Source of the DNA: an uncultured Micavibrio sp. | Lineage (GTDB): Bacteria > Pseudomonadota > Alphaproteobacteria > Micavibrionales > Micavibrionaceae | Assembly: GCA_964570705.1 (NCBI GenBank) | Contig: CAZMZK010000001.1 | Span: forward strand, 1-48,188 | Length of the DNA stretch: 48,188 nucleotides | Direction: 5' to 3' | Shown here: piece after piece, positions 4,017 to 45,667 of the stretch | Position numbering within the stretch: the stretch's first letter is position 1 | Layout: each line of letters starts with the position of its first letter | The notes under the pieces: generated by a model | Told to the model about the DNA's origin: nothing | Seen by the model: only the letters and a program-made list of their open reading frames with translations | Databases searched by the model: none | Position numbers and translations under genes: made by a program

Positions 4017-4030
4017 GATAACGCCGCTCC

Positions 4031-5508: not shown

Positions 5509-5522
5509 CGGAACGGACTGGC

Positions 5523-7746: not shown

Positions 7747-7984
7747 AAATATGTAGCCTTGCAGGATGTGATCAAAGGAGAGTGATAGGAGAAATTCAGA
7801 ATTATTGCAAGGGAATAGAAACGCAGAAGCTCACTACAAATTTCAAGAACACATAAAAGATCGTGCTATTTCTGGAGAAGCCGTAATTATCTTTTTGCCT
7901 TTTTGCCTGAAATCACTATGATAATCGGACTTTTTATCCCTTTGACCTTAATACTCCCTTTCACAGGGAACACAGGAAAATAGC

Positions 7985-9289: not shown

Positions 9290-9292
9290 GTA

Positions 9293-9769
9293 ATGCGGGG
9301 CGTATGGCGGCTTTTGGCTGGTATGATGTGTCTGGTCGGCGCTGGGAGCGTTGGCCAGGCTGCTGAAGCGCCACGGCAATTGTCAGGGGCCGATCTGGAA
9401 ATGGCCGCCAAGATGAATGATGCCTATGCCCGTCATATGTATTCATCCGCCTGTGTGGATACGCAAGAATCTTATTTTATTCCTCCGAAAACCATGCCGG
9501 CGGCGGATAAAGCCAGGATTCTCCAGTCATTCAAGACGTCATGTGATTGTCTAACAGCCAATGTTATGAAAGCGGCAGCCCCCAATGATGTCATTAATTA
9601 TGTGACGACCGTCAATGGCGGAAGGAAATCTGGCTCTACGCCTGATGAGGGGGAAACCCGCGCCTTTCCCGATCTGCCGCAAGGATCTGTGGAAGAGCAA
9701 AAAATGTTTAAGATTATTGATGTCGGACGTGACCCGAAAATACGTAAGGATTGTGGATTTACGCGGTAA
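9293..9769 (+). CDS. hypothetical secreted Cys-containing protein located between nuoF and nuoG
   Basis: 158 aa with a signal-peptide-like N-terminus (LLAGMMCLVGAGSVGQAAEA). Starts 4 nt after the nuoF stop. No recognisable domain. Confidence 0.5.
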   Translation: MRGVWRLLAGMMCLVGAGSVGQAAEAPRQLSGADLEMAAKMNDAYARHMYSSACVDTQESYFIPPKTMPAADKARILQSFKTSCDCLTANVMKAAAPNDVINYVTTVNGGRKSGSTPDEGETRAFPDLPQGSVEEQKMFKIIDVGRDPKIRKDCGFTR

Positions 9770-9889
9770 AACTCTTTTCTAAAACAGAATTACCGTTTTA
9801 ACTTTGAAACCAGTATGCTAGGACGTTTGCTATGTTATTTGCAGGGTTATTAGCACGAACAACTCGTGAAGAATGAGGGATTTGACACT

Positions 9890-11950: not shown

Positions 11951-11952
11951 GT

Positions 11953-12774
11953 ATGAAAATTCTTCTCTCCCTTGTTGTGCTATTGCTGGCTATCCCTGCA
12001 TACGCAGCGGACGGGGGAGAAGCATATGATCGTGTAATAAAGTCCAACACGTTGCGGTGTGGCATCATGTTGTGGCCGCCTTATTTTGAAATGGATGCGA
12101 ATACCCATGCGTTAAAAGGGTTTGGCGTTGATTTTTATAATGCGGTTGCGGAGATTCTGGGGATTAAAATCACTTACTCCGAGATCATTCCAGGGCAGCA
12201 AGCCGAAGATTTGAATCGGGGAAAAATTGATGCCGTATGTAACGATGGTCCCTATGTTTTCTCGGCCATGAAGTTTGTAGATTATACTGTCCCAGCTTAT
12301 TATGGCCCAACGTATGTTTATGTAAGTGAGAAAAATACCTCGTTCAAAACGCCGGATGATCTGAATAAAAAAGCGGTTCGCTTCGTGGGGATGGATGGGG
12401 ATTTGAGTTCGGATCTGGTCCCTCGTCATTATCCGCAGGCAGCATTACAAACATTGCCTGCAACGTCGGATGCGGCTGCGTTAATGCTGCAAGTTTCGAC
12501 AGGCAAGGCAGATGCCGTTATCATCGATCCGGGGCCTGTTGATGGGTTCAATGCACAGAACTCCCCGAAATTAAAACCTCTTTTCAAAGAGTCGCCCTTC
12601 GTCTACCCTATCGGAATGTCGGTGAAAAAAGGGGAGCAGCAGCTTTTGAATATGCTGAATTCTGGAATTTCTGCACTGTGGAATACACACGGAGCCTTGC
12701 CGATCCTCCGGAAGTATGATCCAAAGGGACGCATGTTTTTACCAATTTCAAAACCGTATGAATTAAAATACTAA
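11953..12774 (+). CDS. family-3 (amino-acid type) ABC transporter substrate-binding protein, orphan, located between nuoG and nuoH
   Basis: ATG at 11953 gives the signal peptide MKILLSLVVLLLAIPAYA. The SBP_bac_3-like body includes GFGVDFYNAVAEILG and a KADAVIID-type hinge. No permease or ATPase gene is adjacent. Confidence 0.75.
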   Translation: MKILLSLVVLLLAIPAYAADGGEAYDRVIKSNTLRCGIMLWPPYFEMDANTHALKGFGVDFYNAVAEILGIKITYSEIIPGQQAEDLNRGKIDAVCNDGPYVFSAMKFVDYTVPAYYGPTYVYVSEKNTSFKTPDDLNKKAVRFVGMDGDLSSDLVPRHYPQAALQTLPATSDAAALMLQVSTGKADAVIIDPGPVDGFNAQNSPKLKPLFKESPFVYPIGMSVKKGEQQLLNMLNSGISALWNTHGALPILRKYDPKGRMFLPISKPYELKY

Positions 12775-12780
12775 GGTGGA

Positions 12781-13815
12781 ATGATGACCGCATTAAAGGA
12801 ATTTCTGCACACTATGTTTGGCCCGTTCTGGGGGGATGCTGTCCTTCTGGTTGGGTCGATTGTCGGGCTGTCCCTGTGCATTATGGTGTTTGTTGCGTTT
12901 GTGACCTATGCCGAACGCAAAGTTCTGGGGGCCATGCAACGTCGTCAGGGGCCTATGACGGTTGGGCCTTTTGGTTTGTTACAACCTTTTGCCGATGCGT
13001 TTAAACTGTTGTCCAAAGAAACGATTGTGCCAACTCAGGCAAACCGCCCTGTGTTCTTTATGGCACCGATCTTGATTCTGACGCTGGCGTTGGTGGCATG
13101 GTCTGTCATTCCTTTGAGTGCACAGATGGTTCTGGCTGATATTAATGTGGGGGTTTTATTCCTCTTTGCGATTTCATCCTTAGGGGTCTATGGCGTGATT
13201 ATGGCCGGATGGGCCTCCAACTCGAAATACGCCTTTCTTGGCGGCTTGCGGTCGGCCTCCCAAATGGTGTCGTACGAAGTTTCCATGGGATTGGTGATTG
13301 TCACGGTGATTTTGTGCACCGGGTCGATGAATTTGTCGGAAATTGTGCTTGCGCATCGTCCGTGGTGGATGGATCTTCTCCTCCTGCCGATGCTGGGGGT
13401 TTTCCTTATTTCCATTCTGGCGGAAACCAACCGCCCGCCTTTCGACTTGCCAGAGGGCGAATCGGAATTGTCGGGGGGATTTATGGTGGAATATTCGGCG
13501 GGGACCTTCGTTCTGTTCTTCCTCGGTGAATACATGAATATGGTGTTGATGTCGGCGATTACAGCGGTTCTGTTTCTGGGGGGGTGGTTGCCTCCTTTCG
13601 GGATCGAGGCTCTGGCTGTTGTCCCCGGTGTTATCTGGATGATTGCCAAGATTTCGCTCGTCCTGTTCTTCTTTTTCTGGGCACGGGCGACATTCCCCCG
13701 TTACCGCTATGACCAATTAATGCGCTTGGGGTGGAAAGTCTTCTTGCCATTCAGCTTTATCTGGGTTGTAATTGTGGCCGGAACACTGATTTATACGAAC
13801 ACGCTGCCTCATTAA
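12781..13815 (+). CDS. nuoH: NADH-quinone oxidoreductase subunit H
   Basis: 344 aa polytopic protein with [16 protein letters not shown] and [16 protein letters not shown] motifs. Confidence 0.95.
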
Positions 13816-13839
13816 GAGATTATCAATAGGAAATAGATT

Positions 13840-14328
13840 ATGTCTGCTTTTACCGTTGCCCGTTCGTTTTTGTTGATCGAAATCCTCAAAGGGATGGCGT
13901 TGACTTTGAAATACATGTTCTTTGTCCCGCGTGTGACGATCAACTACCCGTATGAAAAAGGCCCGTTATCGCCCCGTTTCCGTGGGGAGCATGCGTTGCG
14001 TCGTTATCCCAACGGGGAAGAGCGCTGCATCGCCTGTAAATTATGTGAAGCGATTTGCCCGGCCTTGGCGATTACGATCGAGGCAGAGCCACGCGAAGAT
14101 GGCTCTCGCCGCACGACACGTTACGATATTGATATGACCAAGTGCATTTATTGCGGCCTGTGTCAGGAAGCCTGTCCGGTTGATGCGATTGTAGAAGGCC
14201 CGAATTTTGAATTTGCAACCGAAACCCGTGATGAATTGTTCTATAACAAACAAAAATTGCTGGAAAACGGGGATCGTTGGGAAGCACAACTCGCCCGGAA
14301 TTTGGTCGCGGTAGCTCCGTATCGTTAA
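13840..14328 (+). CDS. nuoI: NADH-quinone oxidoreductase subunit I
   Basis: 162 aa with two 4Fe-4S ferredoxin motifs ([12 protein letters not shown] and [12 protein letters not shown]). Confidence 0.95.
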
Positions 14329-14433: not shown

Positions 14434-15087
14434 ATGGCACACGACGCGAAATCACGGGACATGCAATCTTTTCAGGCTCCGACCAGTTCCAATTCGGATA
14501 TCAGCTCTATTTTGTTGATGATTCATGCGATGAAAGAGCAAATGGACGGGATGGAGCGGTTCGTCCGTCGTCGGTTTGATGAAATTTCCATGGAAATCAA
14601 CGCGACATCCCAACAGCTGGATATGGCGGAAGAGGGCTTGGCGGGCCGATTCTCTGAAGTCTTGAGCGTGATCTCGGCGATTTCGTTCAGCGGGAACGGA
14701 TTGACGGCTGCCAATACGGGCGTGGAGCTGGAAGCGGTTATTACCGACACCGAAGAAGCGGCCAATAAAATTCTGGATGCCGCCGACCGTATTTCGCAAC
14801 GGATCCGGACGGAAAATCAATTGACGGGTGAAGAGGCACGGAAACGCTTTCTGGAAGAAACGCGTTCCGATGTACAGGATATTCTGATGGCCTGTACGTT
14901 CCAGGATTTGACGGGGCAACGGATTCGCAAAACCTTGGAAAGCCTGCAACTGATTGAAAACAAAATCAGCACGACGCTGGACGAGTTGGGGATCGAGGTC
15001 AAAGTTGATCCTTTGGCGGGCGGTGTTCGGGAATCGACGGAAAACCACGCCCATTCCCAAGCCGATATCGACGCGTTGTTTTCATAG
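14434..15087 (+). CDS. cheZ: CheZ-like CheY-P phosphatase (orphan; no other che genes in the window)
   Basis: 217 aa with the active-site string FQDLTGQRIRK (compare E. coli CheZ DFQDLTGQVI, which carries catalytic D143/Q147) and an acidic C-terminal peptide SQADIDALFS resembling the CheY-docking tail. Confidence 0.75.
   Translation: MAHDAKSRDMQSFQAPTSSNSDISSILLMIHAMKEQMDGMERFVRRRFDEISMEINATSQQLDMAEEGLAGRFSEVLSVISAISFSGNGLTAANTGVELEAVITDTEEAANKILDAADRISQRIRTENQLTGEEARKRFLEETRSDVQDILMACTFQDLTGQRIRKTLESLQLIENKISTTLDELGIEVKVDPLAGGVRESTENHAHSQADIDALFS
15012..15087. repeat. left copy of a ~76-nt direct repeat (the native 3-prime end of cheZ, including TAG)
   Basis: The string ttggcgg..ggtgttcgggaatcgacggaaaaccacgcccattcccaagccgatatcgacgcgttgttttcatag recurs at 15814-15891. 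Confidence 0.85.
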
Positions 15088-26240: not shown

Positions 26241-27797
26241 TCAAAGGGTTCTGTGCATCTTTTCAATAGTTTTGGTTGTGCTCAGGCCTTCGGTTAAGTC
26301 AATCAATTCGATTGTTCCACCGAAACTTTCCATGATCTTGGCTTCGGGAAGAGTGGCTACTGTATAATCGCTTCCCTTGAAATATATATCCGGTTTCAAA
26401 AAGCGGATCAGATTTCCGGCAGTGTTATCGTCTCCCGCCTCTGTGGCCCCGAAAAAGACAACCATATCCACGCATCCCAGCGCGCCAATGACCGTCGCAC
26501 GCGAAGATTGATCATTCACGGGTCGCGAAGGCCCTTTCAACAAACGCACCGATGCATCGTGATTGAGCCCCAGAACCAAACGGTCGCACCGCGCCCGGGC
26601 CGCATTGAGGTAATTCACATGACCCGCATGGACAATATCAAAACAGCCATTGGTAAAACCAACTTTCAATCCACGGGATCGCCATAATTCGATTTGTTCC
26701 AACGCCTCGTCTGCGGTGCAGACCGGCGCAATTCCTGTAGCATTCGATGAAAACCGTGTTCCAACCACCATATGCGCAGCCGGTTTAAAATCCGGACTTG
26801 ACAGAGCTTCACACAACTCTGCGTAACGGATAGGTGTGGTCCCCACTTTTCCTACCACGATCCCCGCGGCCACATTTGCAATCGTCGCGGCATCCGCGAT
26901 ATCCGCTCCGGCCGCAAGTCCGGCCGCAATCGTTGCAATCACCGTATCGCCTGCGCCCGATACATCAAAAACTTCACGCGCCAAGGTGCGCAAATGGACA
27001 GGAGCCACATCCGGCTGGATAATGCTCATGCCATCCTGGGAACGGGTTGCGACAATCGCACGAATACCGGAATCCGCCATCAATTTTTCAGCAGCCTTAA
27101 TCACATCGGCATCAGACTCCGTGATCATACCACCTGTAGCTTCGGATAATTCTTTCCGGTTCGGCGTGGCCAAAGTAGCCCCTTTATATTTCGACAGATC
27201 ATGCCCGCGTGGATCCACCAGAACAGGAATATTCCGTTCATTGGCACAGGTAATAATATGGCGGATCAAACGATCCGTCAGATGGCGATACCCATAATCG
27301 GATAAAATAATCGCATCCTGCGTCGGAATCACATCCGAGGCCCGAGCCACCAACAAATCTTCAATATCTGCGGGGCATGTTCTGGTTCCATCAACATCCA
27401 CCCGCAGAACCTGCTGGTGACCAGACATATACCGTGTTTTGACCGTGGTACGGGTCTTCGGATCCACAATCAGATTGTTGGGATCGGCTCCGGTGGCCTC
27501 CACCAAATTCCGGATGATATCGCCATCGCGATCAGGCCCAATGACCGAAAGGATCGTGGCTTTGATCCGTAACCCGATCAGGTTGGAAAAACTGTTCCCT
27601 GCTTGCCCCAAGACATTATTTTCCTGATGCGCGAGTAACACCGGAACAGGGGCTTCCGGAGAAATACGACTGACATCTCCGCGAATATAGCGGTCCAGAC
27701 AGATATCCCCCACCACCAGAATGCGACGGGAATCAAACGAACGCATCCGATCCATGTAATTTTGAGGGGCATTCGCAGGAGTTTGGAGCGAAATCAT
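26241..27797 (-). CDS. hldE: bifunctional D-beta-D-heptose 7-phosphate kinase / D-beta-D-heptose 1-phosphate adenylyltransferase
   Basis: An N-terminal PfkB-type kinase (RILVVGDICLDRY ... DVSGAGDTV) is joined to a C-terminal cytidylyltransferase (GFTNGCFDIVHAGHVNYL). The start is uncertain: ATG 27797, 27755 or ORF-track 27875. Confidence 0.9.
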   Translation of the reverse strand: MISLQTPANAPQNYMDRMRSFDSRRILVVGDICLDRYIRGDVSRISPEAPVPVLLAHQENNVLGQAGNSFSNLIGLRIKATILSVIGPDRDGDIIRNLVEATGADPNNLIVDPKTRTTVKTRYMSGHQQVLRVDVDGTRTCPADIEDLLVARASDVIPTQDAIILSDYGYRHLTDRLIRHIITCANERNIPVLVDPRGHDLSKYKGATLATPNRKELSEATGGMITESDADVIKAAEKLMADSGIRAIVATRSQDGMSIIQPDVAPVHLRTLAREVFDVSGAGDTVIATIAAGLAAGADIADAATIANVAAGIVVGKVGTTPIRYAELCEALSSPDFKPAAHMVVGTRFSSNATGIAPVCTADEALEQIELWRSRGLKVGFTNGCFDIVHAGHVNYLNAARARCDRLVLGLNHDASVRLLKGPSRPVNDQSSRATVIGALGCVDMVVFFGATEAGDDNTAGNLIRFLKPDIYFKGSDYTVATLPEAKIMESFGGTIELIDLTEGLSTTKTIEKMHRTL

Positions 27798-27944
27798 AAT
27801 GGCGCGCTTTCGGTAATTTGCTGGAAAAGCCAATAAAACTGCCAATTTTTTCGCATGATGGTAAGAATTTGTCAACTTTTATAGTGTGTAATAAAGGTGA
27901 GAAGGTTTGAAGAATGCAAACCTCCAGAGGAAAAACGACTGGGT

Positions 27945-28913
27945 ATGGGCATGCCGCGACACACACACGACACGGGTATTTTACGTCTGATCAATGCATA
28001 TCTTCACCGCAACAAAGTCGGTGAAATTCTGGTGGCGCACGGAAAATTAACGGTGGATCAACTCCGTGAAGCGCTGCACCTTCAACGGCACGATTCTGTC
28101 CCGTTGGGCCATCTTCTTATCAATCGGGGAATTATTACCCGCTATGAATTGGGAAAAGCCCTTCTCACACAATCCGCACTCAGAACCATTGTGGCCACTC
28201 TCACCCTGTTAAGCAGCGTCACATATTTTTCGCCACGTCAGGCGTTGGCCGGACAAGAGGAGGCTATTCCCGCATCCATCACGGTTGCTTATCTCCCTCC
28301 AGGGGCGATGGACTCTGAAATCGGGACAAACGATGCGTCTTTGTTCGGAACCAGTGAACGATCCTCGACAGATCTGTCATCGTTTACCAAATGGACCGGA
28401 ATGTTTGATCGTTTTACACAAGAGGTTACTGCCGGACGATCACAGGAGGCAATCCAGAAATGGCGAAAAGCGTTGGCGGCGTTTCGCGGGCTGCCTTTGC
28501 AAGACATGGCCCGTGATGTCAATGATATGATGAACAAAGTGCGCTATATCGGCGACAATCGCAATTGGGGAAAATCGGATTATTGGGAAACTCCGGTCGA
28601 GTTTTTGACCAAGGGTGGCGACTGCGAGGATTTCGCGATTGCGAAATACGTTTCTCTAAGGGCTTTAGGGGTTCCTGATAAAGCGATGCGTGTCGCCATT
28701 GTGCGGGATTTGCAGAAAAACATTCCGCATGCTGTTTTGATTGTCTACACCAGCCAAGGCCCAATGGTTTTGGATAACCAGATCAAAACCATGACCAAGG
28801 CCAGCGAGATCAAACATTATAAACCGATCTTTTCGATTAACCAGACAGCGTGGTGGCTTCATTCTGACCGCCCAACGTCCAATCCATCCCAGATCGCATC
28901 GGCGGCCAGATAA
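27945..28913 (+). CDS. MshEN-like (T2SSE_N) c-di-GMP-binding motif + single hydrophobic segment + bacterial transglutaminase-like cysteine proteinase (BTLCP, LapG family)
   Basis: The N-terminus reads KVGEILVAHGKLTVDQLREALHLQ-RHDSV-PLGHLLINRGIITRYELGKALLTQ (nt 28014-28172). A hydrophobic LRTIVATLTLLSSVTYF follows. The C-terminal domain carries GGDCEDFAIAKY, PHAVLIV and VLDNQ (Cys-His-Asp contexts of Peptidase_C93). The start is ATG 27945 or 27951 (ORF-track GTG 27897). Confidence 0.75.
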   Translation: MGMPRHTHDTGILRLINAYLHRNKVGEILVAHGKLTVDQLREALHLQRHDSVPLGHLLINRGIITRYELGKALLTQSALRTIVATLTLLSSVTYFSPRQALAGQEEAIPASITVAYLPPGAMDSEIGTNDASLFGTSERSSTDLSSFTKWTGMFDRFTQEVTAGRSQEAIQKWRKALAAFRGLPLQDMARDVNDMMNKVRYIGDNRNWGKSDYWETPVEFLTKGGDCEDFAIAKYVSLRALGVPDKAMRVAIVRDLQKNIPHAVLIVYTSQGPMVLDNQIKTMTKASEIKHYKPIFSINQTAWWLHSDRPTSNPSQIASAAR

Positions 28914-31186: not shown

Positions 31187-32065
31187 TTAATGGAGCAATT
31201 CAAGGCCAGCAGGGCGACCAGCTTTCGAAAGATCTGGACGAGGCATCATTGGATCAACATAGCTGGATTCCTGAACGACATGAATACCCGCCTCCCGCAG
31301 CATAGGCAACATAAAGTCATCTGTCTTCCGGAACCCCTCCAGAATCAATAGGGCATGAGGGCATAGGCGAGAGATGGCCCAAATATGATGTATAGCTATT
31401 TCTGCATCCAACAGATCTCGTTTTTCTCCAGTGCTCACTGCTTTCCTGAAACGAGCAGCCATATGATGATCAAATTTGATGGCATCAATAAATGCAAAAA
31501 TGCCAAGACTCTCTAACTCCCGCCAAGAAAAAGGATCGATATCATCCAAAGCAATACTAATCCCCATTTCCTTTAAGCGCGCAAGAACTTTAGGATTATA
31601 TTCTGGTGGAATGCGACTGTGACCATCCATTTTTGCTTCCGAAATTTCGAACATAACCCTCTGTGGATCATGCTCAATTTTTTCTAAGACTTTTATCAAT
31701 CCTTTACTATAGGCGGTTCGCGAACAAAGATTGATACTAACCCCTTCTTTATATTGCAGAGATTTTGGTAATGCCTTTTCGAGAAGAATAGCATCAACTT
31801 CTGCGTCTAAACCAAGTCGATGACAATTTTTATAGAAATCCTCAACCGAGCCATTCGCAACAATCCGGAGACTCTCTTTCTCAGGCTTATTCAAAATCTC
31901 ACAATGTGGAATACCAACCGACTTTGGCGGAAGAAGAGCCCCTTCTATAAGAACAAAATCCTCAGAACTCGAAGTGCTAAATTGAACACCCTCAAGAATA
32001 TGCTCTCGCATTCCCAGCCAAGCATTCTCTGAAATACTTAAAAAATCTTGACTGCAACTTCCCAT
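31187..32065 (-). CDS. stand-alone divergent EAL-domain protein (putative c-di-GMP phosphodiesterase)
   Basis: The EAL-domain landmarks appear in the right order: CEILNK (EAL), VSINL (N), FEISE (ExxE), IALDDIDPF (DDFGTG position, divergent), IKFD (KxD), ILEGF (EGVE position) and VVQE (QG position). Ends 18 nt upstream of radA. Confidence 0.6.
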   Translation of the reverse strand: MGSCSQDFLSISENAWLGMREHILEGVQFSTSSSEDFVLIEGALLPPKSVGIPHCEILNKPEKESLRIVANGSVEDFYKNCHRLGLDAEVDAILLEKALPKSLQYKEGVSINLCSRTAYSKGLIKVLEKIEHDPQRVMFEISEAKMDGHSRIPPEYNPKVLARLKEMGISIALDDIDPFSWRELESLGIFAFIDAIKFDHHMAARFRKAVSTGEKRDLLDAEIAIHHIWAISRLCPHALLILEGFRKTDDFMLPMLREAGIHVVQESSYVDPMMPRPDLSKAGRPAGLELLH

Positions 32066-36829: not shown

Positions 36830-37414
36830 ATGCCTATCTATCGCACACTTATTTGTTTGGCAGCCTTTACCTCTGCTGTATCTGTTCTGGCGGGGTGTGC
36901 GCCGGGTGATCGTGCTTGGCAGGAGAGTTCCTCCCATACCGTTTTTGGCGCACAATCTTCCCCGAAGGGATATAGGTATCAGGATGATACGCCTTTATCA
37001 TCTCCGGCTCCTTCGTCCCCTTGGATTGCATCGGCTGTAGCGCATGATACAGAGCGTATGACTACCAATGCTGTGGCGTGGAAGGGGGCTGTGTTTGAAT
37101 TGGTTGCCCAGTTGGAGAAAACATTGCCACAAAATGGGGCGCCGATTCGCGTTATGCCGGAAGAAAAATGGTTCGCTGGAACATCGGCCCATACCACATC
37201 CTTTGACCATTATTTGCGTCAAGCATTGATCCAGAAGGGGTATCACCTGACAACGCAACCTGATGCGGGGGCGTTGGTGATGTATAAAATGACCAAAGAC
37301 GCGGCCAAGAAAGATACCTATGTCTTGACGGCGGCGTCCCGGGTGGTTAAGGCCGGAACGCCTGTCTCTGTTCCTGTCTCTGTCGTTGCCATTCTTCCCT
37401 ATGAAGAACAGTAA
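36830..37414 (+). CDS. hypothetical lipoprotein
   Basis: 194 aa with signal peptide and lipobox (AVSVLAGC). No recognisable domain. It is too small and not beta-barrel-like, so it is not an outer-membrane factor for the pump. Confidence 0.55.
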   Translation: MPIYRTLICLAAFTSAVSVLAGCAPGDRAWQESSSHTVFGAQSSPKGYRYQDDTPLSSPAPSSPWIASAVAHDTERMTTNAVAWKGAVFELVAQLEKTLPQNGAPIRVMPEEKWFAGTSAHTTSFDHYLRQALIQKGYHLTTQPDAGALVMYKMTKDAAKKDTYVLTAASRVVKAGTPVSVPVSVVAILPYEEQ

Positions 37415-37974: not shown

Positions 37975-38616
37975 TTACTGGCTGACCCAGACAATACGCG
38001 ATATCCACAAAATGTCCTTGGCTGCTAGAATGTCATCGCCTTCGGCCGGAGGCAACGATTTTAATTCGACTTTGCCACCTGTCTGGCGTGCCAATTCCTT
38101 GGCGTGCAATGCGCCACTGATGGTTTTGACAACCACACGATCCCCGCGCCGTACAGGGGCGTTTGGGGCGATAATCAACCGATCGCCTTCGCGAAACAAT
38201 GGCAACATCCCATTTCCTGTCACTTCCAGCGCATACATCATCAGGCCCTCATCGGGGGCATAAGGGAAATGGATATAATCCCACCCTTCTCCCTTGGGAT
38301 TGCCGGATTCATCAAACACATCGCTGTGTTCGGCCTGATGGGTGGCGATGACCGGAATGCGCGAATGGGTGCGGACGGTTGTGGATGCGGTGCTGATCAA
38401 CCCGATAAAATCGGCCATGCTGGAATTCGTGGCACTCAGGATGCGGGCGATACTCTCGGTAGATGGCCAGCGTGGCTTGCCATCTGCGCCAATTCGTTTG
38501 CTGCGGTTGAACGATGTCGGATCCAGTCCTGCTTTTTTGGCAAGACCCGATGTGGAGTAACCGCAACTTTGCGCCAGACGATCAATCGCTAGCCAGATAG
38601 TGTCGTGTGTCAGCAT
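37975..38616 (-). CDS. HTH + S24 (LexA/CI-like) domain regulator with the catalytic Ser replaced by Gly
   Basis: ATG at 38616 gives MLTHDTIWLAIDRLAQSCGYSTSGLAKKAGLDPTSFNRSKR (HTH). The C-terminal S24 fold has VTGNGMLPLF where LexA, CI and UmuD have G-(D/N/M)-S-M. The Lys context ALHAKEL is retained. Confidence 0.8.
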   Translation of the reverse strand: MLTHDTIWLAIDRLAQSCGYSTSGLAKKAGLDPTSFNRSKRIGADGKPRWPSTESIARILSATNSSMADFIGLISTASTTVRTHSRIPVIATHQAEHSDVFDESGNPKGEGWDYIHFPYAPDEGLMMYALEVTGNGMLPLFREGDRLIIAPNAPVRRGDRVVVKTISGALHAKELARQTGGKVELKSLPPAEGDDILAAKDILWISRIVWVSQ

Positions 38617-38678
38617 GATGTTCCTAGTATCGCATAAGTCTTTAATCCTAGATATAGGAAAAAAATCATAAATTTTTC

Positions 38679-38707
38679 TTGACAGGAGCAAAAAGAGTCG
38701 GTATCAA
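38679..38707 (+). promoter_or_regulatory. candidate sigma70-type promoter for the rightward phage operon
   Basis: TTGACA (38679-38684), 17 nt, TATCAA (38702-38707), in the divergent intergenic region. The nearby tcctagtat and tcctagatat repeats (38622-38656) could be operator half-sites. Confidence 0.3.
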
Positions 38708-38793
38708 TGAGAACATAAAGGGAACAATTGTAACTTTTTTCAGGTTTTGTGCCGGTTACGCTGTTCCGCAACTCTTCTGGGGACTTAATTATA

Positions 38794-39206
38794 TGACAAC
38801 GTTCAAGACGATCACAGGGTCGCCGTTGCTGACGGCTGACGACACGATTCCATTCAAATCAGCCGAAGAAGCCTGGTTCTGGTTCATTCAGGCGCAAACT
38901 GCCCGCAACGAGGGCGCAAAAATCACGGCCGGAGCCGGATTATATGCGCGCCCCTGTGAGCCGGTAGATATTATTCAGGCGCTGGAGCGCCTGTATCGTC
39001 ATCGCCGTGTGACCATGGATCATGTGATGATTTTGCGTCATTATGGCCAGCGATCTCTCTCGCCTGACCCGCGCCGCCCCAAAGAAAAACGCGCTTATGG
39101 TTTGTGGAAAGAGGCTTTGGAAAAACTCGAAGATGTTTTGGTCACCAAACGTATTGTGGTGCGTCCTCATTGGATCCGCTTGGTGTGTAACAATGATGCC
39201 GGATGA
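38794..39206 (+). CDS. hypothetical phage-associated protein
   Basis: 137 aa from ATG 38794 (MTTFKTITGSP..; FKSAEEAWFWFIQAQTARNEG ... LYRHRRVTMDHVMILRHYG). First gene of the rightward operon. Function unknown. Confidence 0.5.
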
Positions 39207-39567
39207 AATTCTGGTGGTCTTTACCGACCAGACGGATCTGTGGTGGCTCACATGTTTGCGCCGCGGATTCCGTCATTGCTTTGTTCTGCTCCGCTTTGCG
39301 GATGTATGGATATGTGTTGATGCCTTGGCGCATAAGACCGAAGTCATGCGTCTGGATTTGCCGGATGGGTTCCATTTGAAAGATTGGTTCGAACATCAGG
39401 GAGATCGGGTGATTTCTGTCCCTGTGCCTCTGTCATCCGCGACACCAAAAATTTTATGGCCGGCGGCTTTTAGTTGCGTGGAAAGTGTCAAACGCATTCT
39501 GGGAGTACGGTCATTTTTTATTCTCACGCCGTGGCAACTTTTTCGCCATCTGCAGTCTTTAACCTGA
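39193..39567 (+). CDS. hypothetical phage-associated protein
   Basis: 124 aa from ATG 39193 (MMPDEILVVF..). 14-nt overlap with the previous gene. No recognisable domain. Confidence 0.45.
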   Translation: MMPDEILVVFTDQTDLWWLTCLRRGFRHCFVLLRFADVWICVDALAHKTEVMRLDLPDGFHLKDWFEHQGDRVISVPVPLSSATPKILWPAAFSCVESVKRILGVRSFFILTPWQLFRHLQSLT

Positions 39568-39585
39568 AAGGATACCATCACTATC

Positions 39586-39834
39586 ATGGGAAGCATTACG
39601 TCACGCCCCAAAATTCCTACGGCGGCCGCTGTGGTAACTCCACAAACAACGGAGTCCAGCTCCGCCGTCACGACATCGCCAACCGTGGCCAGTCCGGACG
39701 AGGTTGCCAAATCCCGCGTCGAGACTGTTTTGCGCCGATCGCGTAGCGTTCTGGGGAACGTCTTAACCAGCTATCGCGGTCTTTTGAATGAAAACAGCAC
39801 TGCGCCACAACGCAAATCCTTGTTGGGAGAATAA
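39586..39834 (+). CDS. hypothetical small phage protein
   Basis: 82 aa, low-complexity T/S/A-rich centre, ends RKSLLGE. Its N-terminus MGSITS resembles the MGSLTS N-terminus of the 47588 gene. Confidence 0.45.
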   Translation: MGSITSRPKIPTAAAVVTPQTTESSSAVTTSPTVASPDEVAKSRVETVLRRSRSVLGNVLTSYRGLLNENSTAPQRKSLLGE

Positions 39835-39837
39835 TCC

Positions 39838-41316
39838 ATGTCCGAAGATCTGAATCAGTTGCTGGCGCGAAAATTTCGTGCAGCAAAATCACAACACGAC
39901 CAATGGCAAGGGGTGTGGCGGGATTGCTATGATTACGCGCTCCCCCAATGTAGCTCCTATCTCTCCGGAAGTGGTGCGGTCAATCGGCGCAGTGAATCGT
40001 TGTACGATGGGACAGCGCTCGATTCGGTGGATCAATTGGCCAGTCTGTTATTGGGCAATGTGACGCCACCATTGACTCCCTGGTTTGGATTAAAAGCCGG
40101 AACCGATTTGACACCGGATGAAGCCAAGGCGATTGCGCCTGCGCTTGAGAAAGCGACACGTTTGTTGCAGGCCCATTTTGATCAATCGAATTTTATTGTC
40201 GAGATTCATCAATGTTTTCTGGATCTGGTTGTCGCTGGAACCGCGTCTTTGGTATTTGAAGAGGCGGATATTGGCGAATTATCTGCCTTTCATTTTATGG
40301 CCAATCCGTTGAGCGACATCGTGATGGATGAAAGCGCACATGGCAAGCTGGATACGGTGTTTCGTTCCATCGCATTAACCCTGCCCCAGATTCTGGCGCG
40401 GTATGAGGGCGCGGATATACCGTTATCTTTATTGCACACAGGAAATCGTCATCCGGATGAAACCTTTCCGTTGATGGAGGTTGTCACAAAACATCCGGAC
40501 GGGCATGGATATCTCTTTGCTTTATGTGATCCGGACACGCTCGAGATCATCTATCAAAGCACGTTGCCGCAATCGCCGTTTATCAATTTCCGTTGGATGA
40601 AATCTCCGGGGGAAATTTATGGGCGGTCTCCGGTGATGAAGGCATTGCCGGATATTAAAACCGCCAACAAAGTTGTCGAATTGATCCTGAAAAATGCGTC
40701 GATTTCGGTCACTGGGATTTGGCAGGCCGAAGATGATGGTGTGTTAAATTTGTCCAATATTGAATTGGTTCCCGGCGCTATTATTCCAAAAGCCATAGGG
40801 TCCAAAGGTTTGACGCCGTTGGAGATGCCCGCACGGTTTGATGTATCGCAATTGGTGTTGAGCGATTTGCGCGGGCGCATTCGTCATGCGTTGTTGGCTG
40901 ATCGTTTGCCGCAGATAAGTGATGCTGGCCGCGCTACGGCCACCGAAATTACGTTGCGATCGAACGAGATGACGTTGCTTTTGGGGGCCACATTCGGGCG
41001 TTTGCAAGTCGAATTGTTGAACCCGTTATTGCAGCGGGCGTATCAGATTTTGCGCAAGCGCGGTGTGATTCCCGATTTACCGCTGGATGGGCGGGTGGTT
41101 GCGATTGATTACCGATCGCCGTTGGCCCGTGCGCAATCATCGCAAACAGTGCAGCAGGCTTTAGGCTGGATACAGGCTGCCACCAGTCTCGGCCCCGATA
41201 TTGTGGCGCAAATCAATCGTCCGGCGATGATGGCCTACCTGACCGAGATGTTGGGTGTGCCGGATTTCCTGACACAACCTGACTCATCTTTCATTATTCC
41301 AACAAAAGGAGACTAA
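39838..41316 (+). CDS. phage portal (head-to-tail connector, T7 gp8-like)
   Basis: 492 aa with SD gggaga. The N-terminal block (W..VWRDCYDYALPQ ... LYDGTALDSVDQLASLLLGNVTPPLTPWFGL) resembles the podoviral Head-tail_con family. Position before scaffold and capsid supports the call. Confidence 0.8.
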   Translation: MSEDLNQLLARKFRAAKSQHDQWQGVWRDCYDYALPQCSSYLSGSGAVNRRSESLYDGTALDSVDQLASLLLGNVTPPLTPWFGLKAGTDLTPDEAKAIAPALEKATRLLQAHFDQSNFIVEIHQCFLDLVVAGTASLVFEEADIGELSAFHFMANPLSDIVMDESAHGKLDTVFRSIALTLPQILARYEGADIPLSLLHTGNRHPDETFPLMEVVTKHPDGHGYLFALCDPDTLEIIYQSTLPQSPFINFRWMKSPGEIYGRSPVMKALPDIKTANKVVELILKNASISVTGIWQAEDDGVLNLSNIELVPGAIIPKAIGSKGLTPLEMPARFDVSQLVLSDLRGRIRHALLADRLPQISDAGRATATEITLRSNEMTLLLGATFGRLQVELLNPLLQRAYQILRKRGVIPDLPLDGRVVAIDYRSPLARAQSSQTVQQALGWIQAATSLGPDIVAQINRPAMMAYLTEMLGVPDFLTQPDSSFIIPTKGD

Positions 41317-41319
41317 CCT

Positions 41320-42094
41320 ATGACCGATCTGACCCCCACCCAAACCAGTGACAATTTGTTAACCGCCGCCGTTGATGTGAATGACACCGCTGCCCCAGCC
41401 ACGCAAGATCCTGCGAAGCCCGATTCGGTGCCGGATAAATTCTGGGATGCCGACAAAAAAGAAATTCGGGTTGATGCTCTTCTCAATTCGTATCTGGCTC
41501 TTGAACGGCGCGCCTCGAAAATGGTGCCTCTGCCAGAGACAGAAGATGATCGCAAGCGGTTGCAAAAAAATCATGGGGCTCCCTGATACGGCGGATCAAT
41601 ATGATATTACTTTGCACAATGATGTGATTGCGATTGATCCGGAATTGAACGCCCGCTTGCACCAGAAAGGGTTTACCAATGATCAGGTGCAGGAAATTTA
41701 TGATCTGGCCACCGAGAAACTGGTGCCGATGATATTGGATATGGCCGCAGAGTTTCAGGCTGACCGCGAATTGGAACGTTTGGTCAAAGAATTCGGCGGG
41801 CCGGAAAAATGGGATGTCGTCTCCAAACAATTGCAGGAATTTGGTCAGAAAAATCTGCCTGCGTCTGCCTATGACGGGCTTTGTTGTTCATATGACGGCG
41901 TGATGGCGTTATATGCCATGATGAAGTCCGGCGCGAAAAGTCCGATTGCCAAGGATGAGACAACCGCGATTGGCCCGATCGATGAAGCCGGATTAAAACA
42001 GATGATGCAAAATCCGAAATACTGGCGCGAGCGTGATCCTGCCTTTATCGCGCGGGTGAGTGATGGATTCCAGAAGCTGTATGGTGGTCAGTGA
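41320..42094 (+). CDS. phage scaffolding-like protein, reading frame broken at an A7 run (41564-41570)
   Basis: Frame 1 (41320-41586) ends ..RKRLQKNHGAP*. Frame 2 continues IMGLPDTADQYDITLHND.. to 42094. Removing one A gives a continuous 257-aa protein reading ..RKRLQKIMGLPDTADQYDI... SD aaggag. Position between portal and capsid. Confidence 0.6.
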
Positions 42095-42186
42095 GTGTTT
42101 TAGTGATCAGTGATTAGTGGCGAGTGATCAGTTTTATGCAAGGCGTCATCCCGTTGGCGTGTTCCGTTAGGAACGCTTGCACAAAC

Positions 42187-42281
42187 GGGATCCAGAAAAG
42201 AGCGGAAAGCAATGCTTTCCGCACATCATGGATTCCGGCTGTGTGAGTTTTTTCTACGAAAAAACACCGCCGGAATGACGG
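42187..42281. repeat. 95-nt nested-hairpin element, copy 1 (inverted partner at 48051-48145)
   Basis: gggatccagaaaagagcggaaagcaatgctttccgcacatcatggattccggctgtgtgagttttttctacgaaaaaacaccgccggaatgacgg. 91 of 95 positions are identical to the reverse complement of 48051-48145. It is preceded by a gtcatcccgtt..aacgggatcc hairpin (42146-42194). Confidence 0.85.
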
Positions 42282-42300
42282 TCTGCCAGAGCGGTATGAA

Positions 42301-42699
42301 CTAAGCCTGTGATCCGGCGAATTCGCGGGCGTTAAAGTCGTCAATCACGTTCTGGAACGTTTTTCGCATGTCGTTGTTAACCGGCAAGAATTGGAACGAG
42401 ACCGATTCGTTGGATTTGCGCACGACTTTGGCTTTGTGTTTAACGCTGATCAAATTCTCGCGCAGATGGAATTTCAATTCGACATCCATTTCTTCACCAA
42501 GGGCCACAGGGCGGGTATCGGCAAATACCCGCATGCCGCCCGGGCTCCAGTCAAGGATCGGGTGGGCTTTGCCATTGATGAAGCCCACGCACTGGTCGCA
42601 GCTGCGGCGTGGATGAACACGGCGCGAGGCGAAGCCGTCTGTGCCGTCCGAAGAGATCGAATTTTTAAACCCTAATGCAGTCATAATACCCTGCAGCAT
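42301..42699 (-). CDS. single-domain PilZ c-di-GMP receptor (reverse-strand cargo gene between scaffold and capsid)
   Basis: 132 aa with SD taggag 9 nt upstream of the ATG at 42699. The PilZ signature RRVHPRR (RxxxR) ... DWSPGG (D/NxSxxG) is present. Confidence 0.8.
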   Translation of the reverse strand: MLQGIMTALGFKNSISSDGTDGFASRRVHPRRSCDQCVGFINGKAHPILDWSPGGMRVFADTRPVALGEEMDVELKFHLRENLISVKHKAKVVRKSNESVSFQFLPVNNDMRKTFQNVIDDFNAREFAGSQA

Positions 42700-42987
42700 A
42701 ATTTTTGCTCCTAAAACTGTCTATGACAAAAGGCGTAGATTTTGAGTTGTCTACAGATAAAACGCAGCTTTCGTCATCCTATAGTCCGGATCATACACCA
42801 AGACGCCGGACAAAACAATAAAAATATGTTTATGACAATAAATAGTCCTGATTTCCCCAGATAACCGCCTGTTTTCTGCCCGAAAACGGCGGCCTGAGAC
42901 GATACAACACTGCCTTTTCTCTGGCCGGACACGAGAACCGGAGGCAAGGGCATTCCCGTAACCCCCATAACCCAAAAGGATACATAC

Positions 42988-43818
42988 ATGAGTACAGATA
43001 TCAATCTCGCCTTTGTGAAGCAGTTCGAACGTGAAGTGCATGAGGCGTACCAACGGCAAGGGTCCAAATTGCGCGGCGCCGTGCGCGTGATCAACAATGT
43101 AAAAGGATCGTCCGTTGTCTTCCAGAAAGTCGGAAAAGGCACCGCATCCACAAAATCCACCCATGGCATGGTGCCGGTGATGAATGTCAGCCATACCGCC
43201 GTCGAATGCGTGTTGCAGGATTATTACGCCGGTGATTGGGTCGATAAATTGTCCGAGTTGAAGATCAATCACGATGAACGCGCCGTGATTGCGAATGCCG
43301 GAGCCTATGCGCTCGGTCGTAAAACCGATGATCTGATTATCGGTGCGCTTGCCTCTGCAACATCGTTGGTGATTCCGGATGCCAATATCGGCCTGACCCG
43401 CGATAAGGTTCTCTCCGCCTTTGAAAAACTCGGCGGCGCGGACGTGCCGGATGATGGCCAGCGTTTCGCCGTGATCGGGTGGAAGCAATGGAGCGAGTTG
43501 TTGAAAATCCCTGAATTCGCCTCATCCGAATATGTCGGTGCGGATGAATTGCCGTATAAAAATATGCAGGCCAGAAAATGGTTGGGAACCACATGGATTC
43601 CGATGTCGGGCTTGCCCATGGATGGCAATGATATCCGGTCGTGTTTCTGGTTCCACAAAACCGCCATTGGCCATGCGTCGGGGTCGGATGTCCAGTCCGA
43701 TATTACCTGGCACGGCGATCGTGCGGCGCACTTTGTCAACAACATGATGTCCCAAGGGTCGGTGTTGATTGATGGGTCAGGTGTGGTGGTCATCAACTGT
43801 GACGAAACCCCTGATTAG
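42988..43818 (+). CDS. phage major capsid protein
   Basis: 276 aa with SD aaagga. It is in the capsid position after the scaffold. The N-terminal LAFVKQFEREVHEAYQRQGSKLRGAVRV and C-terminal SQGSVLIDGSGVVVI blocks look like a recurrent phage capsid family, judged from memory only and not verified. Confidence 0.7.
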   Translation: MSTDINLAFVKQFEREVHEAYQRQGSKLRGAVRVINNVKGSSVVFQKVGKGTASTKSTHGMVPVMNVSHTAVECVLQDYYAGDWVDKLSELKINHDERAVIANAGAYALGRKTDDLIIGALASATSLVIPDANIGLTRDKVLSAFEKLGGADVPDDGQRFAVIGWKQWSELLKIPEFASSEYVGADELPYKNMQARKWLGTTWIPMSGLPMDGNDIRSCFWFHKTAIGHASGSDVQSDITWHGDRAAHFVNNMMSQGSVLIDGSGVVVINCDETPD

Positions 43819-43927
43819 TGTGTGAGTGAACAGTGATGAGGAATGAGTGGTCGGTCAATCATGATCCATCACTTGTTTCCCCATCCTCTATCTTTTTCAT
43901 GTCCAATTTTTATAAGGAGTACAAAAC

Positions 43928-44170
43928 ATGGCTTTTGCAACAAAAGACCTGAGCGTGTTGGCTTATGCCAATAATTTTACCCTGTGGCATTACACGACGT
44001 TTGATGCGTCGGTTTTAACCGCAGGATATTTCAACTCTGCAGCCAGTATGCTGCGGGTCAATGATCTGATGATTGTGAATCTCGATACAGATGGCACACC
44101 GTCAACAGTCTTTTATATCGTCACCGGAAACACCGGATCTGTCGTGACTGTTGCGACCTTCACCGCGTAA
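43928..44170 (+). CDS. small phage head-associated protein (decoration or accessory candidate)
   Basis: 80 aa with strong SD aaggag. Immediately downstream of the capsid gene. Confidence 0.5.
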   Translation: MAFATKDLSVLAYANNFTLWHYTTFDASVLTAGYFNSAASMLRVNDLMIVNLDTDGTPSTVFYIVTGNTGSVVTVATFTA

Positions 44171-44323
44171 TCACGCCTCCTGCCTTTGTGTGAAGGGTGC
44201 AGGTTTTTCCCTCCTCCTCTGCACCATTCTGTATCGATCCGGAATGGCCGGATATATCCTCCTCCCGCAACGGGATCCGGCCATTCCCCCTTTTTCAAGA
44301 CTCTTTATAACGGAGATTATATT

Positions 44324-44893
44324 ATGGCGTTGAATGATATTGGCCTGTGTGCCCGTGCCTTGGCCCGTGTGGGCGTGCATCCTATTACCTCTTTTGCCGA
44401 TGGAACGGCCGAATCCGAAATTGCGGCCTTGCTGTATCCGCCGTTGCGCGATGCGATTTTATCGTCCTATCCGTGGAGCTTTGCCACGGCGCAAATATCT
44501 TTGACACGGTTGGAGACTGCGCCTGTTGCCGATTATGCCTATGCGTATCAATTGCCGTCCGGTTTCTTGCGGGCGTTATCGGCGGGGATGGGGACGCGCG
44601 GGCGTGGCGTGTCGTATCGTCTGGTGCAAAATCAACTGCACAGCGATGCCAGTGCCATCACGCTGACCTATGTGTATCGCCCCGAGGAAGAAGATTTTCC
44701 ACCCTATTTTGCGTCAGCGGTGATCACGCGATTGGCCGCGGAATTTTGTTTGCCGCTCACCGAGAATACGGCGCGCGCCGAAGCTCTGGCCCGATTGGCG
44801 GATCAAGACCTTATCCGCGCCCGCCAGATTGATGCGCAACAACACAGCCCCAACCGGATCGAGCGCTTCCCGTTGATTGATGCGCGGGAGTAA
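44324..44893 (+). CDS. phage adaptor / tail tubular protein A-like (by position and size)
   Basis: ATG at 44324 with SD ggag gives 189 aa (MALNDIGLCARALARVGVHPITSF..YPWSFATAQ). T7 gp11 is of similar size and occupies the same position. The ORF-track start at 44186 is unlikely. Confidence 0.45.
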   Translation: MALNDIGLCARALARVGVHPITSFADGTAESEIAALLYPPLRDAILSSYPWSFATAQISLTRLETAPVADYAYAYQLPSGFLRALSAGMGTRGRGVSYRLVQNQLHSDASAITLTYVYRPEEEDFPPYFASAVITRLAAEFCLPLTENTARAEALARLADQDLIRARQIDAQQHSPNRIERFPLIDARE

Positions 44894-44904
44894 AAGTTAT
44901 TTGA

Positions 44905-45316
44905 ACCACAGAGGTTTTTTCTTCGCGATCGTCATCCCCCGATTTACTCGGGGGATCCAGAAAAGAAAGTTCTTTCACCACAAAGTGCACGAAGCTCTCG
45001 AAGTTCACGAAGTTTTTGTGTCCATAAAATCCGTGTTCATCTGTGGTCTTTAAGGTCTTTTTCTGGATCCCCCTAGACTGCTGCGCAGTCAGGGGATGCA
45101 GTCAGGGGATGATGTACGGGAAGTAAGAAACCTCTGCGGTCTCTGCGGATTCTTTGCGACCTCTGCGTGTGGCATTCTTTTTTTAACCACGAAGTGCACG
45201 AAGCGCGCGAAGGTGTTTGTGCTTCAGAAATTCCTTCGTGAATTTCGTGGTCTTCGTGGTTCAATTTTACTTTTTTCTGGATCCCCCGAGTAAATCGGGG
45301 GATGACGGGCGGAGGA
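44905..45316. repeat. cluster of nested or degenerate palindromic MITE-like elements
   Basis: gtcatcccccgatttactcgggggatccagaaaag (44931-44965) is inverted at 45270-45306. A related ctggatccccc..gtcaggggatg unit lies at 45063-45111. cacgaag, cttcgtg and ctctgcg short repeats lie in between. Confidence 0.8.
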
Positions 45317-45559
45317 TTAGTTTGTTCCGAAGCCGAGAGCTTGGAACCCATTTTGAATACATCTATCGTTTGCACTATGGAGAAATTTTAATACGTGTGC
45401 TTCAGGGCACTGGAATGCACGAGCGAGGTCACCCTTTGTAAAAAGATTATGATGCAAAGCATCTCTCACAATATCACCGACTGAATGACGATGAGGTTTT
45501 TCACCTGCAGCAAACTGGTTCAATTTCTTACGAATAGATAGTGCATGAGTATCGGTCAT
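45317..45559 (-). CDS. small putative HTH protein (reverse-strand cargo gene)
   Basis: 80 aa with SD gagggg 4-5 nt upstream. It has a helix-turn-helix-like stretch FTKGDLARAFQCPEAHVLKFL. Flanked by AT-rich DNA and the repeat cluster. Confidence 0.45.
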   Translation of the reverse strand: MTDTHALSIRKKLNQFAAGEKPHRHSVGDIVRDALHHNLFTKGDLARAFQCPEAHVLKFLHSANDRCIQNGFQALGFGTN

Positions 45560-45667
45560 TTTCCCCTCTTATTACGTTAAAGTTAATCGAAAATTTCATA
45601 TTTCATAACTTACGCAACCCGCTTTGTCAATATGAAAATATAATCCACCTTACTATCAGGAGAGTTT

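Follow-up and report, generated by a model that had tools for sequence, protein, structure and literature searches.

A predicted precursor of a LapG-fold cysteine protease with an MshEN_N-type c-di-GMP receptor motif pair ahead of its Sec signal-peptide-like segment in Micavibrio-group bacteria

We analysed a 48,188-nucleotide stretch of contig CAZMZK010000001.1 (assembly GCA_964570705.1) from an uncultured Micavibrio sp., referred to here as the window. A gene on its forward strand (27945..28913), delimited from the list of open reading frames and the sequence, encodes a predicted precursor in which an MshEN_N domain, a type of receptor for cyclic di-GMP (c-di-GMP), is followed by a Sec signal-peptide-like segment and a bacterial transglutaminase-like cysteine proteinase (BTLCP). 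The stop codon lies at 28911-28913, and the frame is open from a GTG at 27897 (338 amino acids, aa) and from an ATG at 27945 (322 aa). In public gene calls the start is placed at ATG 27945; the resulting 322-aa protein (P0001) occurs with 100% identity on three public contigs. Residue numbers below are counted from GTG 27897 in the 338-aa frame, and all features of this gene lie on the forward strand. The structure discussed is an AlphaFold2 model with a mean predicted local distance difference test score (pLDDT) of 84.

Homologs were collected in two sets: at least 120 full-length metagenomic homologs (249-343 aa, 49-65% identity) from a protein database clustered at 90%, and the best 80 loci with one genome per GTDB species. 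Counts of domains and catalytic residues across the alignment were taken over 118 aligned family members. All of the best 80 species loci, which are labelled Micavibrio, Alphaproteobacteria metagenome-assembled genome or 'Pseudobdellovibrionaceae' (the family where NCBI places Micavibrio), encode the full-length fused form. A preliminary description of this DNA had read the receptor-type domain and the protease as a single translated polypeptide, and the fusion was indeed found in more than 120 homologs and in these 80 loci; judged from this distribution, it is conserved under selection. A library of representatives at 50% contained 7,884 BTLCP relatives, and about 23 of the top 150 reach across the N-terminal domain. 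When only the N-terminal 106 residues were used as the query, the homology search gave no match, the word index being too coarse for such a short sequence. The precomputed Pfam annotation lists Peptidase_C93 (PF06035) alone for nearly all of the 120 listed homologs, and the source names, where given, are 'transglutaminase-like cysteine peptidase'. Because the annotation shows Peptidase_C93 alone, the fused proteins are likely to escape domain-based surveys of c-di-GMP receptors.

The C-terminal part of the protein could be assigned by several methods. The catalytic domain (residues 149-324, 28341..28868) was identified by Pfam, NCBIfam, PDB and Foldseek searches, and it holds the subfamily motif LFGxxE..S.F.KW and a DYWETP loop. 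The match to Peptidase_C93 anticipated in the preliminary description was obtained with E=1e-20 and 74.6 bits against a gathering cutoff of 27. In the PDB profile search, the LapG structures 4U65 (E=4e-32) and 4FGO (E=4e-30) were the best sequence matches, and LapG structures were also at the top of the Foldseek search, with E values of about 1e-10 and target TM-scores of about 0.7 (6e-11 and 0.67 for 4u65_E). The triad consists of Cys243 in GGDCED (28623..28625), His278 in PHAVL (28728..28730) and Asp293 in VLDNQ (28773..28775). These residues, as well as the GDCED and DYWETP segments, are invariant in the 118 sequences, and they align with GDCED, AHMVL and VLDS of LapG from Pseudomonas fluorescens. 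The Asp and Glu flanking Cys243 are presumably equivalent to the Ca2+ ligands reported for LapG (Boyd et al. 2012), and the protease is probably calcium-dependent. The NCBIfam equivalog model for LapG (NF045674) covered residues 179-324 with E=1.9e-35, and it matched all 118 homologs at E<=0.001, with a family best of 3e-36 that is close to the match of the query. However, the query scored 122 bits against an equivalog cutoff of 320, so on sequence the protease is a BTLCP of the LapG fold and not a LapG ortholog. The term 'LapG-like' used previously therefore stands for fold and family; it does not extend to orthology, and no Lap partner genes were found near by in the window or in four annotated homolog loci. 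Between the catalytic domain and the preceding segment lies a mature N-terminal stretch or linker (residues 119-148, 28251..28340), which was modelled with low confidence (pLDDT 53-62). Most homologs show a (K)DIP..I.LA motif there, with K122 in 88, D123 in 76 and P125 in 102 of the 120 sequences, and the same motif occurs in the non-fused relatives P0139 and P0140.

At the other end of the protein, residues 40-92 (nt 28014-28172) read KVGEILVAHGKLTVDQLREALHLQ-RHDSV-PLGHLLINRGIITRYELGKALLTQ on re-checking, as given in the preliminary description, where they were taken as two 24-residue copies of the MshEN consensus separated by a 5-residue spacer. This assignment was upheld by the NCBIfam model NF053729 (c-di-GMP-binding, MshE-related), which matched residues 41-92 over model positions 2-53 of 53 with E=8e-12 and 44.7 bits against a curated cutoff of 38. 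The same model matched 118 of 118 aligned family members, all at E<=0.001 and the best at E=9e-18. Agreement of this kind goes well beyond chance. Motif 1 (KVGEILVAHGKLTVDQLREALHLQ, residues 40-63, 28014..28085) was recognised by this model and aligned without gaps to R9-Q32 of MshE from Vibrio cholerae (VcMshE). A phmmer comparison of the single query sequence was gapless to VcMshE residues 7-67, which places the spacer (RHDSV, residues 64-68, 28086..28100) in register with that of VcMshE, also of five residues (PMC5013675). The sequence of the spacer varies among the 120 homologs and its length is constant. Motif 2 (PLGHLLINRGIITRYELGKALLTQ, residues 69-92, 28101..28172) was delimited by conservation and by the helical bundle of the AlphaFold2 model. 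Ahead of motif 1, a conserved helix alpha-0 (GILRLINAYLHRN, residues 27-39, 27975..28013) was recognised from conservation and the model; G27, L36, R38 and N39 are kept in 110, 103, 98 and 112 of the 120 homologs, respectively. The modelled helix spans residues 12-21 of the 322-aa form, and the region resembles 'AYPQKNRLGE' of PilF GSPII-C.

Comparisons with known structures pointed in the same direction. In the PDB, the family profile matched PilF (6F8L, E=3e-22) and MshE (5HTL, E=9e-10) as well as several N-termini of PilB, and weaker matches to the query N-terminus were obtained with NfrB, a related glycosyltransferase model and EpsG, in each case on their MshEN regions. The model showed pLDDT values of 83-97 over the domain, with helices as expected for a four-helix bundle, and Foldseek superimposed this predicted bundle on 5HTL_B over 55 residues with a root mean square deviation of 0.9 Å and a probability of 1.00. 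The match to Pfam T2SSE_N/MshEN foreseen in the preliminary description did not appear, as T2SSE_N (PF05157) gave no match to the query even at E<=10; the support comes instead from NCBIfam, the PDB profile matches and the fold. By sequence comparison, the N-terminal part is a genuine motif pair of the MshEN_N type, for which c-di-GMP binding is predicted. It comprises the 53-residue MshEN_N subdomain without MshEN_C, and the predicted bundle runs directly into the hydrophobic segment.

The hydrophobic stretch LRTIVATLTLLSSVTYF after motif 2, and GGDCEDFAIAKY, PHAVLIV and VLDNQ behind it, were all found again as previously listed. Homology and conservation identify residues 93-118 (28173..28250) as an internal Sec signal-peptide-like segment, with the conserved Arg96 (28182-28184) as its n-region, an h-region at residues 97-111 (~15 residues) and SPRQALA as the c-region. 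About 90 residues, predicted to be cytoplasmic, come before the segment. The conserved AXA pattern predicts a signal peptidase I cut after Ala118, between nt 28250 and 28251. R96 is kept in 119 of 120 homologs and 78 of 80 species loci, position -1 is Ala in 120 of 120 and 78 of 80, and position -3 is A, S, V or T in every homolog and species locus. Fused members at 35-45% identity (P0126, P0133, P0134 and P0141) also keep Ala at -1 and A, S, V or T at -3. The uncharged span measures 15-17 residues and the hydrophobic core about 15. Signal peptidase I sites are defined by the -3/-1 rule of von Heijne, and since the residues at these positions are conserved, the segment carries by this rule a canonical, selected signal-peptidase-I site at which cleavage is predicted.

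The relationship to non-fused proteins supported the same assignment. The non-fused BTLCP relatives from the representative search begin with ordinary N-terminal Sec signal peptides, and when both groups are aligned together, the h-regions and cleavage sites of these relatives coincide with residues 93-118 of the fused proteins. With a slash at the cut, the sites read ...YFSPRQALA/GQ in the query, ...SVACAQPALA/GN in P0187, ...SPQGALA/QE in P0138 and ...FASPALA/QG in P0176. The mature N-termini of fused and non-fused proteins are homologous as well, with DIP..I..A and LFGxxE..F.KW in common. The hydrophobic segment is thus, judging from this alignment, the protease's own Sec signal peptide by descent, and it is presumably cleaved. 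The preliminary description was right that one hydrophobic stretch is present, but the stretch is not a neutral transmembrane linker, as it aligns with cleavable Sec signal peptides and conserves their -3/-1 residues. Its proposal of a one-component Lap switch with permanently linked parts is, given a conserved cleavage site homologous to that of non-fused relatives, not the best-supported reading. Cleavage after RQALA, named there as an event that would refute permanent linkage, appears the likelier outcome because of the signal-peptide homology, the conserved -3/-1 residues and the ~15-residue core. On the N-terminal side, one unbroken helix in the model leads from the last helix of motif 2 into the h-region, and pLDDT falls below 50 exactly at the cut site. 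The junction Q92-x-x-x-R96 has no gaps in the 120 homologs or the 80 species loci. This fixed spacing and the continuous modelled helix argue for a tight coupling of sensor and segment.

We propose that the gene encodes, in precursor form, an exported BTLCP cysteine protease with the LapG fold, and that its 53-residue MshEN_N bundle would bind c-di-GMP on the cytoplasmic, N-terminal side of the Sec signal peptide. The last helix of the sensor would pass straight into the hydrophobic core through a fixed 3-residue junction (Q92-x-x-x-R96), which would place the ligand site at the inner membrane face. Occupancy by c-di-GMP would then act in cis on the fate of the protease, that is, on its export, membrane retention or release. 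In one outcome, export and a cut by signal peptidase I would yield a soluble periplasmic protease; in the other, the protein would stay uncleaved and membrane-tethered, or unexported. A single polypeptide would in this way reproduce the sequester-or-release logic that LapD applies to LapG in trans (PMC4359373). Of this explanation, the identity of the domains, the conservation of their fusion, the signal-peptide homology and the conserved AXA have been computed, and MshEN_N-Peptidase_M23 proteins provide a precedent for an MshEN_N domain joined to a peptidase domain (PMC5013675 Suppl. Table 4). To control in cis of protease export, retention or release by c-di-GMP, in which binding, cleavage and direction are all predicted, we assign a probability of about 0.55. 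More tentatively, and with some doubt, we suggest a specific form of it, a c-di-GMP-gated signal peptide: the bundle would act as the n-region, and the bound ligand would move the short h-region or hold it in place, confining Sec engagement or signal-peptidase-I cleavage to one c-di-GMP level.

Several observations weigh against control in cis by way of a signal peptide. Cleavage by signal peptidase is irreversible, so control would be confined to newly made protein. To our knowledge, a second-messenger domain has not been described on any signal peptide before. A scan of about 1 Mb of flanking sequence for GGDEF motifs found no diguanylate cyclase, a result that is uninformative on whole genomes. 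Motif 2 is degenerate across the family, with position 1 mostly P (P36/Q11/R8/H8 among the 80 species loci) and position 10 often N rather than G (N23/G18/A10), which could weaken or abolish c-di-GMP binding in some members. Furthermore, position -5 is basic (K or R in 75 of 80 species loci), whereas such a residue is missing in the aligned signal peptides of the non-fused relatives; together with R96 it brackets a 17-residue span, and the two could fix the helix as a membrane anchor.

In a rival explanation, which corresponds to the model of the preliminary description, the segment is a permanent, uncleaved signal-anchor. The c-di-GMP signal would then pass through the single transmembrane helix by piston movement, rotation or dimerisation and switch a tethered protease, giving an inside-out switch of the Lap type. 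The basic residues R96 and K/R114 on either side of the hydrophobic span would suit such an anchor, as would the rigid helix that the model extends without a break from MshEN alpha-4 to the membrane segment, and the invariant length of the junction. A membrane-anchored BTLCP does exist in DvhG of Desulfovibrio vulgaris (PMC13090378), which is held by an N-terminal hydrophobic helix followed by a disordered linker and is likewise controlled by c-di-GMP. DvhG, however, has no cytoplasmic sensor; its receptor DvhD is a separate protein (HD-GYP with dCache), and most DvhG orthologs carry plain signal peptides (PMC13090378). For the protein described here, the conserved -3/-1 site (Ala at -1 in 120/120 and 78/80), homologous to the cleavage sites of non-fused relatives, speaks against an anchor. 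The hydrophobic core is about 15 residues only, and the ~30-residue low-confidence linker before the catalytic domain would be a poor allosteric conduit. We therefore consider a permanent anchor unlikely.

A further alternative is that the MshEN_N fold is retained without c-di-GMP binding, for example for dimerisation, for slowing or targeting export or for docking a partner, so that the protein would be an exported BTLCP of the ordinary kind whose signal peptide has a long extension. The variability of motif 2, where position 1 is rarely Arg and position 10 often not Gly, fits this possibility, and degenerate MshEN domains that do not bind the ligand are known from XpsE (PMC5013675) and PilF GSPII-A (PMC11731258). 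In the query itself, motif 1 departs from the consensus by K at positions 1 and 11 and V at position 2, and motif 2 by P at position 1; with respect to K11, an I19R change is among those in the non-binding XpsE (PMC5013675). Other positions are well kept in the 80 species loci. In motif 1, position 1 is R in 57 and K in 23, and Gly3 (80/80), Gly at position 10 (77/80), Leu17 (80/80) and Leu21 (78/80) are nearly constant, with Gln24 at 58/80. Motif 2 keeps Gly3 and Gln24 in 80/80 and Leu21 in 77/80, and its position 17 is L61/I16/V3. Positions that contact the ligand by backbone or side chain, namely Gly3 in either motif, Gln24 in motif 2 and the Leu/Val core, are the most conserved of the domain; position 1 of motif 1, always R or K, is a further contact position, and the most conserved positions include ones lost in XpsE (PMC5013675).

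Comparison with PilF of Thermus also bears on this alternative. The preliminary description had noted K11 of motif 1 and P1 of motif 2 as two non-conservative deviations, and both are present; however, both recur in PilF GSPII-C (RLGEVLVQEGKL...; PLGEILV...), the closest MshEN match, which is about equal to MshEN in c-di-GMP binding (PMC11731258). PilF GSPII-B can do without Arg at position 1, and Lys or Leu at this position raises the affinity for c-di-GMP (PMC11731258). The relaxed motif pattern of Wang et al. likewise permits P at position 1 ([RKPN]; PMC5013675). With the query above the NF053729 cutoff and every aligned family member matching that model, a fold that does not bind c-di-GMP appears quite improbable.

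It is also conceivable that cleavage is constant and yields two functional products, with the fragment of MshEN_N plus helix (~118 aa) serving as a membrane-anchored c-di-GMP receptor made in a fixed ratio with the protease. Such a fragment might have other targets, or might be released by signal-peptide peptidase or RseP. This would suit a cleavage site conserved alongside a strongly conserved N-terminal domain. It would also suit the loci L021 and L024 of two genomes, where the gene immediately 3' of the fused one encodes a second BTLCP, a non-fused paralog with an ordinary N-terminal signal peptide (7107-7760 (+) and 7095-7772 (+), respectively); because this ordinary paralog adjoins it, the fused copy would have a distinct role. 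The idea is nevertheless pure inference and leaves unexplained why the partner is always a BTLCP, and an insensitive search recovered no stand-alone homologs with MshEN_N and a transmembrane helix. We regard it as very improbable. Two trivial explanations can be dismissed: there is no conserved Met ahead of the h-region in the 120 homologs, which rules out an internal start giving an ordinary preprotein, and the fusion is kept in frame in more than 200 independent sequences, which rules out a gene-calling or assembly artefact.

Control of protease fate in cis by c-di-GMP, the reading that we prefer, can be set against known systems. LapG of Pseudomonas fluorescens and Legionella (4U65, 4FGO) shares the BTLCP fold, the Cys-His-Asp triad and the GDCED and DYWETP segments, and in both cases, here by proposal, cytoplasmic c-di-GMP sets the availability of a periplasmic protease. 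LapD, however, is a separate degenerate GGDEF-EAL receptor that sequesters LapG in trans, whereas the MshEN_N domain lies on the same polypeptide as the protease. The MshEN domains of MshE, PilB and PilF (GSPII; 5HTL, 6F8L, 8PDK) have the same two 24-residue motifs, short spacer and four-helix bundle, but they include MshEN_C and regulate cytoplasmic secretion ATPases; here, MshEN_N occurs by itself and the output would lie across the membrane. A portable c-di-GMP input on envelope-acting enzymes is also seen in the MshEN_N-Peptidase_M23 protein of Acaryochloris marina (NlpD AM1_1153) and in NfrB (glycosyltransferase-MshEN), with an M23 metallopeptidase or a GT2 domain as the output instead. 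M23 was the only catalogued MshEN_N-peptidase fusion that we found, and Peptidase_C93 is not in the catalogue of Wang et al. 2016 (PMC5013675).

We searched the literature for MshEN or MshE together with transglutaminase, LapG or BTLCP and found no paper describing the fusion, although InterPro or CDART may index the architecture. Control of periplasmic proteolysis by c-di-GMP is so far known from systems of two proteins only, LapD-LapG and DvhD-DvhG. If the proposal is correct, a conserved system on one polypeptide would be the smallest route known by which a cytoplasmic second messenger reaches a periplasmic enzyme, and it could become a simple model for experiments. Micavibrio-like predatory alphaproteobacteria, for which the literature searched contained no characterised c-di-GMP receptor or output, would also gain an example of each. 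The mechanism would itself be new if sensor and protease are linked by a cleavable signal peptide. Should the signal peptide be gated, c-di-GMP would decide post-translationally on the release of a periplasmic protease with no need of a partner receptor, which would be a new principle of inside-out signalling and, in the epibiotic predators of the Micavibrio group, might govern how the envelope or attachment factors are remodelled.

The genes around the protease gene were then compared with those of the known systems. After annotation of the window genes, we agree with the preliminary description that the 48-kb window holds no lapD, type I secretion system or LapA-type adhesin; an HlyD-family gene at 32218 partners an AcrB pump. 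None of the three turned up within about 10 kb of the gene, either in the window or in four annotated homolog loci; in the 80 species loci, the search covered homologs of the genes that flank it in the window, and no search was aimed at Lap genes. The protease probably acts on an envelope protein rather than on a Lap-type adhesin encoded near by. Upstream, hldE (26241-27797, - strand; NCBIfam 1e-130), encoding heptose-7-P kinase / heptose-1-P adenylyltransferase for ADP-heptose synthesis, is divergent from the fused gene in the window and in 67 of the 80 species loci, with an intergenic region at 27798-27944. This pairing suggests a shared regulatory region or a role related to the envelope or lipopolysaccharide (LPS). 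The gene downstream of the fused protease is not conserved in the 80 loci. A scan for promoters and terminators at the locus gave chance-level results only, and Rfam found no c-di-GMP riboswitch and no other RNA family in the whole window.

A lipoprotein gene with a lipobox and a conserved PxGY..(x)..YKS motif, which matched neither Pfam nor NCBIfam, lies at 36830-37414 (+), about 8 kb away in the window. In 58 of the 80 species loci it is found just past hldE, near the protease gene; examples are the copies at 5128-5691 (-) of L008 and 4440-5585 (-) of L024. Some copies read 'NTAAWQG', reminiscent of the T-A-A-G site of LapG. The window copy, however, reads NAVAW, and the lipoprotein therefore stays a weak lead as a candidate substrate. 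HvyA of Caulobacter crescentus (CCNA_00166, PMC4241560), compared by description only, is likewise an alphaproteobacterial periplasmic BTLCP outside the Lap system, with a classical Sec signal; it acts on the cell envelope and inhibits the capsule (PMC4241560). Unlike the present protein, it has no fused sensor, is regulated by cell-cycle transcription and proteolysis and is encoded at a capsule locus, whereas the locus described here is an hldE/fabG locus and not a capsule cluster. By analogy with this precedent, the synteny with hldE and the lipoprotein gene points loosely to envelope targets.

At 2.3 kb from the protease gene, a divergent EAL-domain protein of 292 aa, predicted to be cytoplasmic, is encoded at 31187-32065 (-). 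It matched Pfam with 5e-10 and showed a weak likeness to the EAL part of LapD, and the motifs EIL, N, EISE, DDID, KFD, EGF and QE are discernible. Judging from these motifs, it could be a c-di-GMP phosphodiesterase or receptor. The gene is not syntenic in the other loci. M. aeruginosavorus has a cNMP/EAL protein (PMC6717892), and the two together indicate that c-di-GMP turnover exists in the lineage.

Other parts of the window showed some further features. We found no tRNA genes and no GC anomaly in the window. The region 37975-47566 looks like a T7-like prophage or phage remnant. It encodes a Peptidase_S24 repressor-like protein (37975-38691, -) and two structural components, namely a head-to-tail connector (39838-41316; Pfam 6e-125) and, at 41381-42094, a T7 capsid assembly protein, behind which several large open reading frames without family matches extend up to 47566. 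A nuoF-nuoG-nuoH-nuoI cluster (7985-14328) is broken by a 158-aa open reading frame without a family match (9293-9769), and a gene for a family-3 solute-binding protein (11899-12774) sits between nuoG and nuoH. Just 3' of the nuo genes lies a lone CheZ-like phosphatase gene (14434-15087, +; Pfam 6e-9, NCBIfam 1e-7). Finally, an LPS transport cluster of the lptC-lptA-lptB type was observed at 2593-5583 (-), with a LysE-family exporter gene (3375-4016) inserted between the genes for the LptA-like protein and the ABC ATPase.

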